In this document: positions 44,753-50,141 of the stretch, piece after piece
Layout of the letters: every line of letters starts with the position of its first letter
Numbering within the stretch: the first letter of the stretch is position 1
NCBI GenBank assembly: GCA_020051695.1
Contig: JAGVQM010000019.1
Coordinates: forward strand, 79,937-143,936
DNA length: 64,000 bases
From: Candidatus Zixiibacteriota bacterium
Lineage (GTDB): Bacteria; Zixibacteria; MSB-5A5; WJJR01; JAJRUJ01
Reading direction: 5' to 3'
Position numbers and translations under genes: made by a program
Notes under the pieces: model-generated
Seen by the model: only the letters and a program-made list of their open reading frames with translations
Database searches by the model: none
Told to the model about the DNA's origin: nothing

Positions 44753-45115
44753 ATGTATAAAAAATATCTAATGCTGGCCGTATGTCTGGCCCTGGCCGTT
44801 ACCCTGATTCATGCGCCGGACTCCTGCGGCAAAGCCCGAGCCGCCAAAACCTTTGACGGCAAGGTTTGGGTGCGGATTGATGAGATTGAGGGGCATGAAT
44901 GGAATGAAATAGCCATTCACCCCAGAGACCGGGCACACGGCGACTGGCAATGTTTGCTGATATACCTTCCAATTTTCAACGTCTATTTTGGGCAGATGTT
45001 TGCATACAGCAATAATTCTATAAACGATAACAGAATACGGAAAGACGGGGTCGGGGCAGTTGAGCAATTACACCACAATGAGTGCCGTCCTCGATACAAT
45101 TGCCGACTTGATTGA
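44753..45115 (+). CDS. possible small secreted protein (uncertain; 3' end overlaps the next gene)
   Basis: Good ribosome-binding site and signal peptide MYKKYLMLAVCLALAVTLIHA. The distal third is AT-rich and overlaps the sigma54-activator start, so the true extent is unclear. Confidence 0.25.
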   Translation: MYKKYLMLAVCLALAVTLIHAPDSCGKARAAKTFDGKVWVRIDEIEGHEWNEIAIHPRDRAHGDWQCLLIYLPIFNVYFGQMFAYSNNSINDNRIRKDGVGAVEQLHHNECRPRYNCRLD

Positions 45116-47267
45116 CCGGCAAGAATTCGCGGCGGCACTAAAAGGAATACAGAATCTGGATTGCGCTGACGTTGTCGAGATATCGGCAATTGCGTCCGGC
45201 AGACTACATTTGTATGCCGCCGACGCGTTATACCATTCAGGCAAATACGACGATGCCCTCGAACATGCCAATCTGGCAATCGGACATTTCAGACCTACTG
45301 ATGCGCATTCGCTCTATGGTCGTGCGAAATATCGGCGAGGTTATATTCTTTTGACTGTCGGGGACTATTCTCGCAGTTCGGATGAATTCCGGGAAGCGTG
45401 GTCCGCTTATAAACGTATCGGAGATCAAGAGGGTGAACTATCGTCATGCAATTGTTTGGCTCGATGTGCCTTTTGCCAAGGCCAATACGATAAAGCGAAA
45501 GAATATCTTGTGCATTCCATCGATTTATGCGAGATATTCGGTGACAAAGCCCGAAAGGATGCAATACAAGCCAACTTGGGCGTTGTATTGACTCTTTTGG
45601 GAGATTTTTATTCCGCTAAATCGATCATGCAGATTGCAGAGTCTTCATTAGATGCAATGCCATATGCAAATCAATGCAATACTCATGGAATGGTGGCATA
45701 TCTTTTAATTTTGATGCGTGAATTTGGAGCGGCGACTGAACATCTCGAGAAAAAATATGCAATTGCAAAGGCTCAATTATTAACTCGTCGATTGGCCGTC
45801 TACCACGAATACGCCGGCGAACTTTGTTTCTGGCAGGGCGATTACGAAAAGGCCGAGGAGCACTACCGCGAGGCGATCAAAATCGGGATGGAGATTGCCC
45901 CCGAGGGTGACCTGATCAGCCAGTCGTATCGGCTGCTGGCCGAATTGCAGGTGGCGCGTAATCAGCTGGATGATGCCGAGGAATCCTGCAACCGCGCCTG
46001 GGCCGTCGCGGAGAAGATCACCGAACGCCTGGAACTGGGAGCCATTCAGCGCACCCGCGGCGAAATCGCCGCCCGCCGGGGAGATGCCGAGGCCGCCCGG
46101 ACGGCCTTCGATGAGGCCATCCGCATCCTGAGCGAGATCGGCGCGAAATACGAACTGGCCCGCGCACACCTGCAGGCCGGTGAGGCCGAGGTGTTCAACA
46201 ACGAATATCGAATATTAAATCTCATGGCCGCCCGTGTGCTGTTCGACCGGATTGGTGTGGCCTACTGGCAGGAACGGGTCACCGGGCATATCAAAAAGAT
46301 GGTGCGCGCCGCAAGCGCCGTTTATTTGCGGCCGCCGCCGCCGGCCCGCGCCGCCGAGCCGGTAATCGCCGTCTCCGCCCCCATGAAAAAAATCCTGGAC
46401 TTCCTCGCCAAAGTCAAAGATACCGACGCCACGGTCCTGCTGCTCGGCGAAACCGGGGTGGGTAAGGACCATTTGGCCCGGCATATCCATTACACCAGCA
46501 GCCGGGCGGATAAACCGTTCGAAAACGTTGCCGCGGCGAATTTCCCCGCCGAGTTGTGGGCCAGTGAGTTTTTCGGCCACGAAAAGCACGCGTTTACCGG
46601 GGCCAATGAGGCCAAAATCGGGATCCTCGAACGCGCGAACGGCGGCACGGTCTATCTCAACGAAATCAGCGAGGTGCCGCCGGATTTCCAGCTCAAGATG
46701 CTGCATTTTCTGGAATCCCGGGAGGTCACGCGGCTGGGCGGGTCCAGACGGATCGCCCTTGACATCCGGTTTATCGCCGCCTCCAATAAGAACCTGCTGG
46801 CGGAAATTGATGCCCGAAGGTTCCGCCGGGATTTGTACTACCGGCTCAACCAGGTTCCGGTGGAGATCCCCCCGTTGCGGGAGCGGCCGGGCGACCTCGG
46901 GGAACTGGTGCGACATTTCCTGACGCTGTATAATTACCCGCCCCACAAAATCCGGCATCTGCTGGATTCTCCGTTTTATGATTTGCTGCAGAGCGCGGCC
47001 TGGCCCGGCAATGTCCGGCAGTTGGAGCATTTGCTTCGCCGGTTGACCATCCTGGCCAACGGCGCAGACCCCGAGGCCATGCTCCAGATCGCCCGTGAGG
47101 TTTTGGCTGATGAGAAGTTGCTGCCCGATCCCGAGCGCGAGAAATTATTGGCAATATTGAAAGCCAATGACTGGAACCAGCGAAGGACAGCGCGGGAGCT
47201 GGGGATGGCCGAAAGTTCGCTACGAAAAACCATGAAGCAATTGAAAATCAACCGCTTGCCGGAATGA
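45060..47267 (+). CDS. sigma54-dependent transcriptional activator with N-terminal TPR-repeat sensor domain (no receiver domain)
   Basis: TPR-like repeats over residues 1-430. AAA+ sigma54-interaction domain (LLGETGVGKDHLARHIH, EFFGHEKHAFTGA, GGTVYLNEISEV). C-terminal Fis-type HTH. Start codon uncertain (45060 or 45078). Confidence 0.85.
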   Translation: MSNYTTMSAVLDTIADLIDRQEFAAALKGIQNLDCADVVEISAIASGRLHLYAADALYHSGKYDDALEHANLAIGHFRPTDAHSLYGRAKYRRGYILLTVGDYSRSSDEFREAWSAYKRIGDQEGELSSCNCLARCAFCQGQYDKAKEYLVHSIDLCEIFGDKARKDAIQANLGVVLTLLGDFYSAKSIMQIAESSLDAMPYANQCNTHGMVAYLLILMREFGAATEHLEKKYAIAKAQLLTRRLAVYHEYAGELCFWQGDYEKAEEHYREAIKIGMEIAPEGDLISQSYRLLAELQVARNQLDDAEESCNRAWAVAEKITERLELGAIQRTRGEIAARRGDAEAARTAFDEAIRILSEIGAKYELARAHLQAGEAEVFNNEYRILNLMAARVLFDRIGVAYWQERVTGHIKKMVRAASAVYLRPPPPARAAEPVIAVSAPMKKILDFLAKVKDTDATVLLLGETGVGKDHLARHIHYTSSRADKPFENVAAANFPAELWASEFFGHEKHAFTGANEAKIGILERANGGTVYLNEISEVPPDFQLKMLHFLESREVTRLGGSRRIALDIRFIAASNKNLLAEIDARRFRRDLYYRLNQVPVEIPPLRERPGDLGELVRHFLTLYNYPPHKIRHLLDSPFYDLLQSAAWPGNVRQLEHLLRRLTILANGADPEAMLQIAREVLADEKLLPDPEREKLLAILKANDWNQRRTARELGMAESSLRKTMKQLKINRLPE

Positions 47268-47272
47268 TTGGG

Positions 47273-47307
47273 TGCGCATGCGCAGTCTGCGAGTGCGCAT
47301 GCGCAGT
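47273..47307. repeat. two copies of a perfect 12-bp palindrome TGCGCATGCGCA within a 15-bp direct repeat GTGCGCATGCGCAGT
   Basis: Copies at 47274-47285 and 47295-47306, 9 nt apart, starting 6 nt after the activator's stop codon. Confidence 0.5.
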
Positions 47308-47471
47308 TTAAGTATAACGGAAACAACGCATTCAGCAGCGATGACAGTCTGAGTGTGCCAGGTTCTTTGATAACTCAACCCGACGCCCGACTCGGGAGAC
47401 CCAGGCAGAAAATTCCAGATTGCTATCAACGCCAATAACATAACAAGTTGTCGGCGATCTTAACACCCAAT

Positions 47472-47487
47472 TGGCACGCTCCCTGCT
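47472..47487 (+). promoter_or_regulatory. sigma54 (-24/-12) promoter TGGCACG-N4-CTGCT
   Basis: GG and GC are 12 nt apart. 43 nt downstream come GGAGG and the ATG at 47531. Directly downstream of the sigma54 activator gene. Confidence 0.55.
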
Positions 47488-47530
47488 AATACATCCCGTG
47501 ACGTTAAACTTTTAACCACGGGAGGATGCC

Positions 47531-49039: not shown

Positions 49040-49231
49040 ATGAAAAACAGGACGTTCATCATCATCATGTTCTGTATCACTCTTGTTTGCAGCTACCTTT
49101 TCGGCGGACAACTGGCTGGAATGTCGTTCACCCAGTCGGCAATCTTGACGGTGGCTGTGGGCATTGTTGGCCCGATCATCGGTTTGCTGGAACGCGCGTG
49201 GCGCAAAAAAAAGAACAAAGCGATGTCCTGA
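49040..49231 (+). CDS. small membrane protein (63 aa)
   Basis: GGAGG ribosome-binding site. Two hydrophobic helices and a basic C-terminus RKKKNKAMS. Confidence 0.4.
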   Translation: MKNRTFIIIMFCITLVCSYLFGGQLAGMSFTQSAILTVAVGIVGPIIGLLERAWRKKKNKAMS

Positions 49232-49357
49232 TCGGATGAGAGCGGCAAGCAAAGATCGTTCGGTATTTGAGGAGTAAGTGCGATTGCCGGGGCACCGGCA
49301 ATCGCCATGTCCTTTGCCTTATTGGGTAGCCCCGATCGCAGGTATGGAGGATTATGT

Positions 49358-49558
49358 ATGGGTCGCTTTGCCCGTCCTTTTCTTGGCGGATTAACGGTAA
49401 CGATAGTTTCCGTCTTCGTTGGTTCCGTATTGGGGATTACTCCACGACTGGATGAAGCACCAACGGGAGAGCTTATTTATTGGTTTGTGGGATTTGCCGT
49501 CGTGGGCGCGCTATTGGGGCTGATCTGGGTGGCGGCGAGGAAAATATTAAGCCGGTAG
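49358..49558 (+). CDS. small membrane protein (66 aa)
   Basis: GGAGG ribosome-binding site, then ATG. Two TM helices. Confidence 0.4.
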   Translation: MGRFARPFLGGLTVTIVSVFVGSVLGITPRLDEAPTGELIYWFVGFAVVGALLGLIWVAARKILSR

Positions 49559-49671
49559 CCCACCTGCTTGACATCTGTCATAGCGGGGTGGGTTACCCGC
49601 TCATTTCGGTAATGATTGAGTGTGCGGTTGATTTGTACCAAAATTGATATTTTTGCCGGAGGAGGTGAAGA

Positions 49672-49851
49672 TTGCAGGATCCCAAAAAGTCGGTGCTTGT
49701 CATGGTGATTGCCTGCGTGGGCGTTTGGTCTGTGCTCGAACTATTGCATGTCACCGATCTTTCTTGGCCGTTGATGCTTTTGGCATCGGCAGGAGTAGGT
49801 TTGGCGGCAGGTCTTGCGCTATATGGATTGCGCAAGGCGTTCAAGTTCTAA
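49672..49851 (+). CDS. small membrane protein (about 59 aa, TTG start, or 49 aa from the ATG at 49702)
   Basis: GGAGGAGG ribosome-binding site 8 nt upstream of the TTG. Peptide LQDPKKSVLVMVIACVGVWSVLELLHVTDLSWPLMLLASAGVGLAAGLALYGLRKAFKF. It was missed by the ORF track because a longer ORF in another frame masks it. A GCGGG...CCCGC hairpin precedes it. Confidence 0.35.
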   Translation: MQDPKKSVLVMVIACVGVWSVLELLHVTDLSWPLMLLASAGVGLAAGLALYGLRKAFKF

Positions 49852-49947
49852 TTGCGCTGGTCTGCCTTCCCGGGTGGGCTACCCGCTGGTGCTATTTCGT
49901 CGGCGCATGGATGCGCATTTTCTCAGTTGTTGTAGGAGGGGGAAAAA

Positions 49948-50141
49948 ATGATGAAAGAGTCTCGCAAAAAGTTGTTCATTGGTATTCCCCTCAGTTGGCT
50001 GGGCGGTCTCGGGCTGTCATCACCATCAAACAACTGGGGTTGTGGAACTCCCCGCTGCACATGTTGGTGATTTGGGCCGCCGTGTTCGGCGGCGGATATG
50101 GTCTGGTCTTATTGGGATTGGCCAAAGCGCTTAAATTATAG
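49948..50141 (+). pseudogene. frameshifted paralog of the 49672-49851 peptide gene
   Basis: GGAGGGGG ribosome-binding site, then ATGATG. Frame 1 gives MMKESRKKLFIGIPLSWLGG... and stops at 50071. A shifted frame continues as ...SPLHMLVIWAAVFGGGYGLVLLGLAKALKL, homologous to the C-terminus of the preceding peptide. A similar upstream hairpin (GGGTGGGCTACCCG) is present. Confidence 0.3.

Follow-up and report, generated by a model that had tools for sequence, protein, structure and literature searches.

What a run of small hydrophobic proteins might do behind a sigma-54 promoter is the question raised by a locus of Candidatus Zixiibacteriota. The locus lies within 64,000 nucleotides of contig JAGVQM010000019.1 (assembly GCA_020051695.1, forward-strand positions 79,937 to 143,936), a stretch that we call the window and whose numbering is used throughout. 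It occupies positions 44753-50214 of this 64-kb window, on the plus strand, as one co-oriented unit. In order, the unit comprises the gene of a small signal-peptide protein (up120), the gene of an activator with tetratricopeptide repeats (TPR), an AAA+ domain and a helix-turn-helix (HTH), a pair of palindromes, a sigma-54 promoter, a lipoprotein gene, and six small open reading frames (ORFs). An initial annotation of the same DNA had placed the start of the module at 45060, one gene too far downstream; the unit begins at 44753. The flanks are secDF and DUF4159/DUF4175 genes, and the GC content of the genes behind the promoter, the cargo, is 0.48-0.53, versus 0.56-0.60 in the flanks.

The order activator, palindrome pair, sigma-54 promoter, lipoprotein, and gene of the family of peptide 1 (the first small ORF) recurs in other loci, designated by L numbers (L001, L006, L007, L008, L010, L012, L013-15, and L016). 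The related contigs derive from Zixibacteria-type metagenome-assembled genomes, one of them assigned to Candidatus Zixiibacteriota and another labelled Ignavibacteria. The initial annotation had proposed an uncharacterised sigma-54-regulated small-protein module, to be abandoned if homologs and conserved synteny were lacking elsewhere. That proposal stands, because homologs and conserved synteny exist, the module recurring in about a dozen contigs; its cargo has no family matches. The individual features that the annotation described are real in part, and two of them, a likeness between two protein tails and the paralogy of the last two peptides, found no statistical confirmation. The locus is a rare, undescribed gene module of Zixibacteria-like bacteria. 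Searches with the cargo proteins gave nothing above noise in Pfam, NCBIfam, PADLOC, PHROGs, or the PDB sequences. Exact-sequence look-ups of the window lipoprotein and peptide 2 returned no contig on record, a genome scan with the lipoprotein gave no match, and a metagenome scan with a peptide-1 profile retrieved one contig only. A phage or plasmid origin was rejected, as no relatives were found in IMG/VR, INPHARED, or PLSDB.

The most solid finding concerns the regulator, whose recognition helix and enhancer sites look like a specificity cassette that has been swapped between alleles. Directly after the activator gene, as the initial annotation had noticed, lie two copies of the palindrome TGCGCATGCGCA, at 47273-47284 and 47294-47305 (21 bp apart), the first beginning six bases past the activator stop codon. 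These are the only two occurrences in the 64 kb with one mismatch allowed (expected number, 0.43), and there is no third. A pair of near-palindromic 12-mers spaced by 21 bp was found just once per whole locus, immediately past the activator stop codon, in the window, L001, L004, L005, L006, and L007, which are all the loci where the 3' end of the activator gene precedes the cargo. The palindrome itself varies among them, being TGCGCATGCGCA in the window and L004, TGCGCGCGCGCA in L006, TGCGTCGACGCA in L001, TGGAACGTTCCA in L005, and TGAACCGGTTCA in L007.

The comparison between the window and L007 resolves the exchange (window 47200-47310 against L007 880-960). Over the AAA+ region, the two are 86-98% identical in DNA. 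In the stretch that starts within the HTH and takes in the palindromes, identity is only 36-50%; promoter, leader, and signal peptide are again alike at 73-96%, and the lipoprotein body falls back to 31-58%. At the protein level, the breakpoint lies between helix 2 of the HTH and the recognition helix (ESSLRKTMKQ vs YTTFRRQMIR). Across loci, the recognition helix differs wherever the palindrome differs, and recognition helices that share E-S-[ST]-L-R have the TGCGC half-site in common. Because the reading head and its site are replaced jointly, the comparison provides strong evidence that the palindromes are the enhancer of this activator, and from it we infer binding. Whatever the function of the cargo, the locus is a clean natural experiment on the specificity of enhancer-binding proteins. 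Activators that are otherwise near-identical differ only in their recognition helix and the palindromes matching it, and could yield a recognition code reusable for orthogonal sigma-54 circuits. L004 (6569-8300) carries the same palindrome pair as the window, together with a sigma-54-like site, TGGCACACGCTGTGCAT; its cargo region, a transposase-like remnant on the opposite strand, makes this locus uninformative on the cargo.

The activator itself (45060-47267, 735 aa) gave Pfam and NCBIfam matches that bear out its initial description as a TPR-type sigma-54 activator. About 420 residues of TPR repeats are followed by Sigma54_activat (PF00158, residues 436-601, E 1.7e-56), AAA_lid_14, and a Fis-type HTH_8 at residues 689-727. 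Since it scores well below every named NCBIfam equivalog, it is an unnamed TPR-type enhancer-binding protein. Judged by its AAA+ domain, GAFTGA-type loop, and HTH with putative cognate dyads, the protein is a bacterial enhancer-binding protein, a new regulator within a known protein class. About ten full-length orthologs share 50-69% identity with it, and the more distant TPR activators belong to named Zixibacteria.

The motifs of the ATPase domain show departures. Walker A reads GETGVGKD. The GAFTGA loop of the window protein (46575-46600) is HAFTGA (FGHEKHAFTGA), with the first G changed to H and the F, T, G, and A kept; orthologs have GAFTGA or GTFTGA. In Walker B (46640-46660), NE stands in place of DE in the window activator and in its closest orthologs (P0006, P0008, P0009, P0010, P0012, P0014, and P0015), and DE is kept in the orthologs whose cargo consists of outer-membrane or type IX secretion system (T9SS) proteins (P0007, P0011, and P0013). 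The protein thus resembles the NtrC family in its AAA+ sigma-54 interaction domain, GAFTGA-type loop, and C-terminal Fis-type HTH, and in the paired dyads about 170-200 bp upstream of a -24/-12 promoter. It differs from that family in having about 420 aa of TPR as the sensory part, rather than a receiver, GAF, or PAS domain, in the NE Walker B and HAFTGA loop of the window protein, in upstream sites that lie immediately 3' of its own stop codon, and in the joint exchange of recognition helix and sites between near-identical alleles. Within the gene, the GC content steps from 0.46 in the N-terminal TPR half to 0.62 in the C-terminal TPR/AAA+ half, which suggests a recombination junction near 45950. 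In L006, the two contig ends (1-120 and 2810-2921) repeat the same activator segment with few mismatches, and a second activator-like ORF without a TPR region starts at 2379, explained either by a tandem paralog of the activator or by faulty assembly.

The predicted promoter, TGGCACGCTCCCTGCT (47472-47487, plus strand), lies about 170 bp past the palindromes and 44 nt before the lipoprotein ATG. Its -24 GG and -12 GC elements are 10 bp apart and fit TGGCAC-N5-TTGCW. It is the sole exact match to TGGCACG-N4-CTGCT in the window. YGGCAYG-N4-CTGCT precedes the cargo in L001, L002, L005, L006, L007, and L008, and L013 has a related site. The claim of a good sigma-54 promoter behind the palindromes is therefore well founded as a prediction, with an exact unique match conserved in at least six related loci. 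Two other sites in the window resemble sigma-54 promoters with 1-2 mismatches, both on the minus strand (TGGCACGGGCCATGCA at 17705-17720 and TGTCACGTTGCCTGCT at 60032-60047).

The first gene behind the promoter encodes the lipoprotein (47531-48463, plus strand, 310 aa), in agreement with the initial annotation. It has the signal peptide MRRMLAILAVLHLVLLGC with the lipobox LLGC, a Pro/Thr/Glu tether, and a beta-rich domain at about residues 53-175. Its homologs are P0003, P0004, P0005, and the proteins of L010, L012, and L013. The lipobox G17 and C18 are invariant in the homolog alignment, and the lipobox is likewise present in the L010, L012, and L013 proteins. A protein-index search returned three relatives with 38-57% identity. 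In the AlphaFold2 (AF2) model, the strands at residues 53-175 have pLDDT values of 70-79, and two low-confidence helices at residues 261-309 correspond to the C-terminal tail.

This tail is the variable part of the family. Identity in the N-domain is 38-57%, many of its positions being invariant, and the last 45-60 residues, which are hydrophobic and contain 5-8 Cys, vary by locus and are of several types. Their alignment has only K-C ... N ... C ... C in common. The window lipoprotein ends in what we call the A-type tail (48293-48460), which is directly followed by a peptide-1-family gene in eight loci (window, L006, L008, L010, L011, L012, L013-15, and L016). Stand-alone A-type tails occur in L011 and L016 as short ORFs with a stop codon just upstream; that of L011 (316-459) lacks the N-domain. 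The L001 lipoprotein, in the same position, ends in a B-type tail, which shares 67% identity with the last 60 residues of peptide 2 (E 2e-29). The B-type tail is paired with peptide 3 in two loci, and the pairing of tails with downstream genes covers two tail classes only. A C-terminal sorting signal of the PEP-CTERM or MYXO-CTERM kind was rejected, with no NCBIfam matches and no terminal basic cluster. L011 also contains a repeated leader and ribosome-binding segment (61-104 and 878-921) before two small ORFs, and a remnant of the activator C-terminal HTH at the contig end.

Three of the small ORFs belong to this comparison. Peptide 1 (48493-48735, plus strand, 80 aa) is a member of a two-helix family aligned as helix, basic loop, and second helix, with the loop motif AS.NP+.W.P.WKQ...F+GPGY; an exhaustive phmmer search of 1.84 billion representative proteins gave 22 matches. 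L001 has one peptide-1 ortholog and two tandem-fused peptide-1 doubles. Peptide 2 (48749-49027, plus strand, 92 aa) consists of a peptide-1-type N-terminal helix (48749-48835) and a B-type tail with seven Cys (48836-49024). The near-identity of the N-terminal helices of peptides 1 and 2, pointed out initially, is borne out (57% over 42 aa, E 2e-13). Because its tail is of the type found at the L001 lipoprotein C-terminus, peptide 2 is chimeric, with a B-type tail fused to a peptide-1 N-terminus; it had no relative in a 5.8-billion-protein index. The direct resemblance claimed between the peptide-2 tail and the window lipoprotein tail is not significant (BLASTP E 0.2; hhalign of the tail profiles, E 0.56). 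The two tails are equivalent in position, as shown by L001, where a peptide-2-type tail forms the lipoprotein C-terminus.

The B-type tail has its conserved partner in peptide 3 (49040-49231, plus strand, 63 aa), a two-helix protein whose termini are basic. Peptide 3 is 54% identical to L001 9583-9774, and each of the two genes starts 13 nt beyond a gene that bears a B-type tail. This pair is kept in the window and L001 on different carriers, and its distribution suggests that B-type tail and peptide 3 behave as a cassette moving between carriers. The ratio of nonsynonymous to synonymous substitution rates (dN/dS) is about 0.2 for peptide 1 and 0.25 for peptide 3. For the peptide-2 tail, the nonsynonymous proportion (pN) is 0.24 versus a synonymous proportion (pS) of 0.80, and in the lipoprotein pN is also well below pS. 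Such an excess of pS over pN shows that the lipoprotein, peptides 1 and 3, and the tail of peptide 2 are real genes, with purifying selection acting on peptide 1, peptide 3, and the tail. In L001, a repeated intergenic element of about 130-250 nt stands between small-gene cassettes (9797-9937 and 11109-11240) and gives near-identical spurious ORF translations on both strands.

What kind of system would have such parts? The initial annotation had held toxin/immunity pairs, membrane-active peptides, and a membrane-stress response to be plausible; of these, the comparative data favour the first. As the best reading, we give about an even chance to the locus being a sigma-54-dependent bacteriocin-like system, in which polymorphic membrane-active toxin tails would be matched by cognate small immunity proteins. 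The toxin/immunity pattern is suggested because Cys-rich tails are exchanged on an exported carrier, each tail type has its partner gene, orphan modules and extra or decaying small genes occur, and the locus is mosaic with a GC content below its flanks. In support, the window and L007 are mosaic with respect to each other, the peptide-1-type genes are multi-copy and tandem-fused, and a copy of another type is frameshifted. A cluster at an activator-ortholog locus also counts in favour of a bacteriocin-like system. At L002 15397-18268, and likewise in L003, a second sigma-54 promoter, TGGCATGTTACCTGCT, precedes genes for a radical-SAM protein, a 58-aa Cys-rich hydrophobic peptide, a CPBP/Rce1-like protease, and an ABC transporter, an assembly resembling those for ribosomally synthesised and post-translationally modified peptides (RiPPs) or bacteriocins.

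In the mechanism that we propose, the HTH of the activator would bind the palindromes, and the protein would remodel the sigma-54 holoenzyme once its TPR domain senses a signal, in which the co-conserved up120 may be involved. The tail would act as a membrane-active effector, either displayed on the lipoprotein carrier or released from it, as halocin C8 is from ProC8 and in a manner reminiscent of the C-terminal hydrophobic hairpin of colicins, and the small two-helix inner-membrane proteins would protect the producer. Peptides 2 and 3 might then be a displaced orphan tail/immunity cassette that arrived by recombination into a peptide-1 gene, and peptides 4-6 might be further orphan immunity-type genes, one of them decaying.

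Several observations weigh against a bacteriocin-like role. The cargo resembles no bacteriocin, toxin, or immunity family in sequence or profile, halocin_C8_dom and Hac8_like_N included; genes for export, processing, or lysis are absent from the window; and no recognisable cleavage site precedes the tail. Homology between the A-type and B-type tails is not claimable (profile-profile E 0.56). The loop motif of peptide 1, with its strong conservation and predicted cytoplasmic location, would be unusual for a fast-coevolving immunity protein. None of the fetched loci contains a homolog of peptide 4, 5, or 6, and the comparison set consists of about a dozen short metagenomic contigs.

The nearest precedent by architecture is halocin C8, a 76-aa Cys-rich peptide cut from the C-terminus of the 283-aa secreted precursor ProC8, whose C8 domain is also found C-terminally, as a module, in polymorphic (RHS) toxins (bioRxiv 10.64898/2026.07.27.741052). 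Common to both are a secreted precursor of about 280-310 aa, a hydrophobic, Cys-rich C-terminal stretch of 50-76 residues, and a regulator gene directly upstream. In contrast to the halocin, the present protein has a Sec/lipoprotein signal rather than a Tat signal, its regulator is a sigma-54 activator, its cleavage is putative, and its presumed immunity resides in separate small membrane-protein genes rather than in an N-terminal HalI domain as in ProC8. Membership in the halocin C8 family was rejected, as neither of the defining models was found in the nine proteins tested. With halocin_C8_dom (TIGR04449), the lipoprotein of the window and its peptide 2 had no match at E<=1, and seven related lipoproteins had none at E<=10; Hac8_like_N (PF22862) gave no Pfam match at E<=1 or at E<=0.1.

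Pore-forming colicins have a C-terminal hydrophobic helical hairpin and an integral-membrane immunity protein encoded alongside. The locus resembles them in its modularity, in placing the presumed killing element in a hydrophobic helical hairpin at the C-terminus, and in the adjacent gene for a small multi-helix inner-membrane protein of immunity type. It is unlike them in lacking a colicin-domain match and an SOS or lysis gene, in the lipid anchor, in a much shorter, Cys-rich tail, and in the immunity-like gene, which follows immediately downstream on the same strand. Polymorphic toxin loci of the contact-dependent inhibition (CDI) and Rhs types carry orphan cassettes of C-terminal toxin (CT) and immunity genes. 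As in those loci, a conserved N-terminal carrier bears variable C-terminal modules, each with its own small gene, and displaced or stand-alone tail cassettes and mosaic recombination are seen. Here, however, the carrier is a 250-aa lipoprotein domain instead of a filament or Rhs shell, no pre-toxin motif is present, and the tails are membrane-type peptides rather than enzymes, with membrane proteins of a few conserved families as partners. The cargo families are very rare and have no described counterpart; the function best supported by the comparisons would be a variant of a known system type. If the tails are toxins, diderm bacteria would provide a new antimicrobial chemotype that is gene-encoded, unmodified, and membrane-active, and the locus would be a rare case of sigma-54 control of a bacteriocin.

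How far the operon extends beyond peptide 3 is less certain. The six small ORFs of the initial annotation are present, each with two hydrophobic helices by hydropathy, but they are heterogeneous as genes: peptides 1 and 3 represent conserved families, peptide 2 is a chimera, and peptides 4-6 are orphans. Peptide 4 (49358-49558, 66 aa) has a GGAGGA ribosome-binding site, peptide 5 (49672-49851, 59 aa) has a TTG start and the ribosome-binding site GGAGGAGG, and peptide 6 (49948-50141) is a frameshifted copy of the peptide-5 type, all on the plus strand. The frameshift of the sixth ORF was correctly recognised at the outset; frame 1 is followed to about 50013 and frame 3 thereafter, and each half scores best in its own frame. 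Paralogy within this last pair is weak (tblastn E 0.14-0.3). The lengths of 80, 92, 63, 66, and 59 aa given initially are those of the ORFs, and a GGAGG-type site lies 4-7 nt upstream of every ORF but peptide 2, which starts 13 nt past the peptide-1 stop codon and whose site is weak. By codon-usage log-odds, every small ORF scores best in its annotated frame (-0.08 to 0.34, against a host in-frame mean of 0.44); peptide 4 does so with a low score. The coding status of peptides 4-6 rests on the ribosome-binding sites, the two-helix hydropathy, and these best-of-three-frames scores.

Peptides 4-6 might accordingly be non-functional, either chance hydrophobic ORFs or decayed cassettes between repeated hairpins, in which case the real operon would be the lipoprotein with peptides 1-3. 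We regard this as possible, though rather unlikely. Such a reading would explain why homologs are missing from the fetched loci, why codon scores stay under the host mean, and why one of the three is frameshifted, and transcription could end at the strong stem-loops that follow peptides 3 and 4. Yet a strong GGAGG-type site stands at the correct distance before each of the three, each has a clean two-helix hydropathy with basic ends, and each scores best in its annotated frame; L011 contains analogous, unrelated small two-helix ORFs, and the homolog search covered the fetched loci only.

The stem-loops in question are an 11-bp stem between peptides 3 and 4 (49280-49305, region z-score -3.65) and a long stem-loop over the peptide-4 stop codon that contains GGGTGGGTTACCCGCT (49554-49597, region z-score -3.9), both on the plus strand. 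Neither has a T-run, and they may be attenuators or mRNA-stability elements that set the expression of the distal ORFs. Similar hairpins ahead of the last two peptides had been described before, and we found two copies of GGGTGGGYTACCCGCT, one ahead of each of peptides 5 and 6, at a spacing of 286 nt. The second, terminator-like copy of the hairpin motif, GGGTGGGCTACCCGCT (49872-49887, plus strand), matches 49586-49601 at 15 of 16 bases, 286 nt away. GGGTGGGYTACCCGCT and a second 20-mer, repeated at spacings of 282-286 nt, place the peptide-5 and peptide-6 cassettes in register. A GC-rich hairpin after the last ORF (50173-50214, plus strand; structure only, with a region z-score that is not significant) is probably the operon end. 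No Rfam family was found in the intergenic hairpins, the only matches being to the secF terminator, so that a known structured RNA was rejected; the idea of integron cassettes was likewise dropped, with no integrase and no attC core. At the other end of the operon, a 5' leader hairpin (47494-47523, plus strand; fold z-score -2.5) covers with its 3' arm four of the six bases of the lipoprotein Shine-Dalgarno sequence. An identical hairpin is present in L007 (1141-1170) and a stronger one of other sequence in L001 (8788-8825, z-score -4.0), and none is found in L005, L006, or L008. Part or all of the Shine-Dalgarno sequence is sequestered by these hairpins.

An alternative for the whole locus is a housekeeping-type envelope or membrane-stress module, in which a stable complex of lipoprotein and peptide 1 would be tuned by the TPR-sensing activator in the manner of the phage shock protein (Psp) response, with the other ORFs being accessory or noise. 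We consider this unlikely. Sigma-54 activators often control membrane-stress genes, and the AAA+ domain of this one matches PspF-type models; the strong conservation of the peptide-1 loop would suit a protein whose cellular partner is fixed, and the strict adjacency of tail and peptide 1 would also fit a two-subunit complex. However, the Psp response combines a PspF-type activator with pspA-family effectors, and here the operon encodes no PspA-type protein, the locus holds no other known stress effector, and the activator scores 178 bits on the PspF model against a cut-off of 444. Further difficulties for a stress module are the extremely rare and patchy occurrence of the peptide-1 family (the 22 representatives among 1.84 billion proteins), the variable genomic context, mosaic structure, and atypical GC content of the locus, and the existence of polymorphic and orphan tails.

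Lower still do we rate an envelope-spanning, lysis-like, or remodelling module, with a unimolecular spanin (u-spanin)-type lipoprotein and holin/antiholin-like small proteins whose sigma-54 induction would lead to permeabilisation, vesiculation, or autolysis. Peptides 3-6 do have the N-in/C-in two-helix layout and basic ends typical of class II holins, and peptide 3 gave a sub-threshold match to Phage_holin_2 (E 0.008), but the 310-aa lipoprotein is far longer than the u-spanin T1 gp11, which is reportedly roughly 130 aa, and the locus shows none of the marks of a phage lysis cassette, having no phage context, no endolysin, no PHROG match, and no viral-contig relatives in IMG/VR or INPHARED. 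The polymorphism of the tails, their swapping between carriers, and their stand-alone occurrence are also unexpected of a simple membrane anchor. The N-terminal lipobox, beta-rich periplasmic domain, and C-terminal hydrophobic helices fit the layout of u-spanins such as T1 gp11, which have a lipoprotein signal, a beta-sheet periplasmic domain, and a transmembrane domain at the C-terminus, but u-spanins have no periplasmic cysteines (PMC6139136), and the tails here have 5-8.

To return to the bacteriocin-like system, its signal may be encoded at the front of the unit. The initial annotation did not mention the up120 gene (44753-45115, plus strand), which encodes a signal-peptide protein of about 120 aa and overlaps the activator start by 55 nt. 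Homologs are located directly upstream of the activator in six loci: L001 (two copies, 5668-6380), L002 (7624-7986), L004 (3895-4374), L005 (1352-1732), L010 (2523-2867, minus strand), and L013 (1574-1855, minus strand). These genes encode about 90-160 aa with the motif W.[YR]I.E.E.H.WNE, and their overlap with the activator start is about 52-55 nt; such a gene precedes every activator ortholog. Between the window and L005, dN/dS is 0.35, and up120 has no Pfam or NCBIfam match. On the basis of its position as a conserved partner of the activator gene, up120 may be the signal or a partner of the TPR domain.

In RRNPP quorum sensing, a TPR receptor is encoded next to the gene of a small secreted pro-peptide. 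The present arrangement is similar in that the gene of a TPR transcription factor adjoins, and translationally overlaps, the gene of a small signal-peptide protein, and in that the TPR regulator would control an operon, here a bacteriocin-like one. It differs in its output, which is sigma-54 activation instead of the action of a simple HTH activator, in the small protein, which is about 95 aa when mature and encoded upstream, and in the organisms, which are diderm bacteria of the FCB group; no processing or import genes were seen here, and the link is purely positional. In its most far-reaching form, the proposal would be that candidate phyla of the FCB group have a conflict system of a new class, in which lipoprotein-borne, disulfide-rich, membrane-active peptide toxins with exchangeable tails are countered by dedicated two-helix immunity proteins, the TPR activator senses a peptide or protein ligand that derives from up120, RRNPP-like signalling is fused to sigma-54 activation, and swapped DNA-specificity cassettes insulate parallel circuits. 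We hold the conjunction of all these elements to be improbable. The comparison nonetheless defines several unannotated families from an uncultured phylum (the lipoprotein carrier, two tail types, and the peptide-1, peptide-3, and up120 families), the function of which is now testable.

Some activator orthologs adjoin a different set of genes, a trio encoding a signal-peptide protein of about 277 aa, a protein of about 215 aa, and a T9SS Por_Secre_tail protein of about 560-615 aa (L002 10792-14205; L005 4248-7527). A trio of similar layout lies upstream of the activator in L001 (2065-5363).

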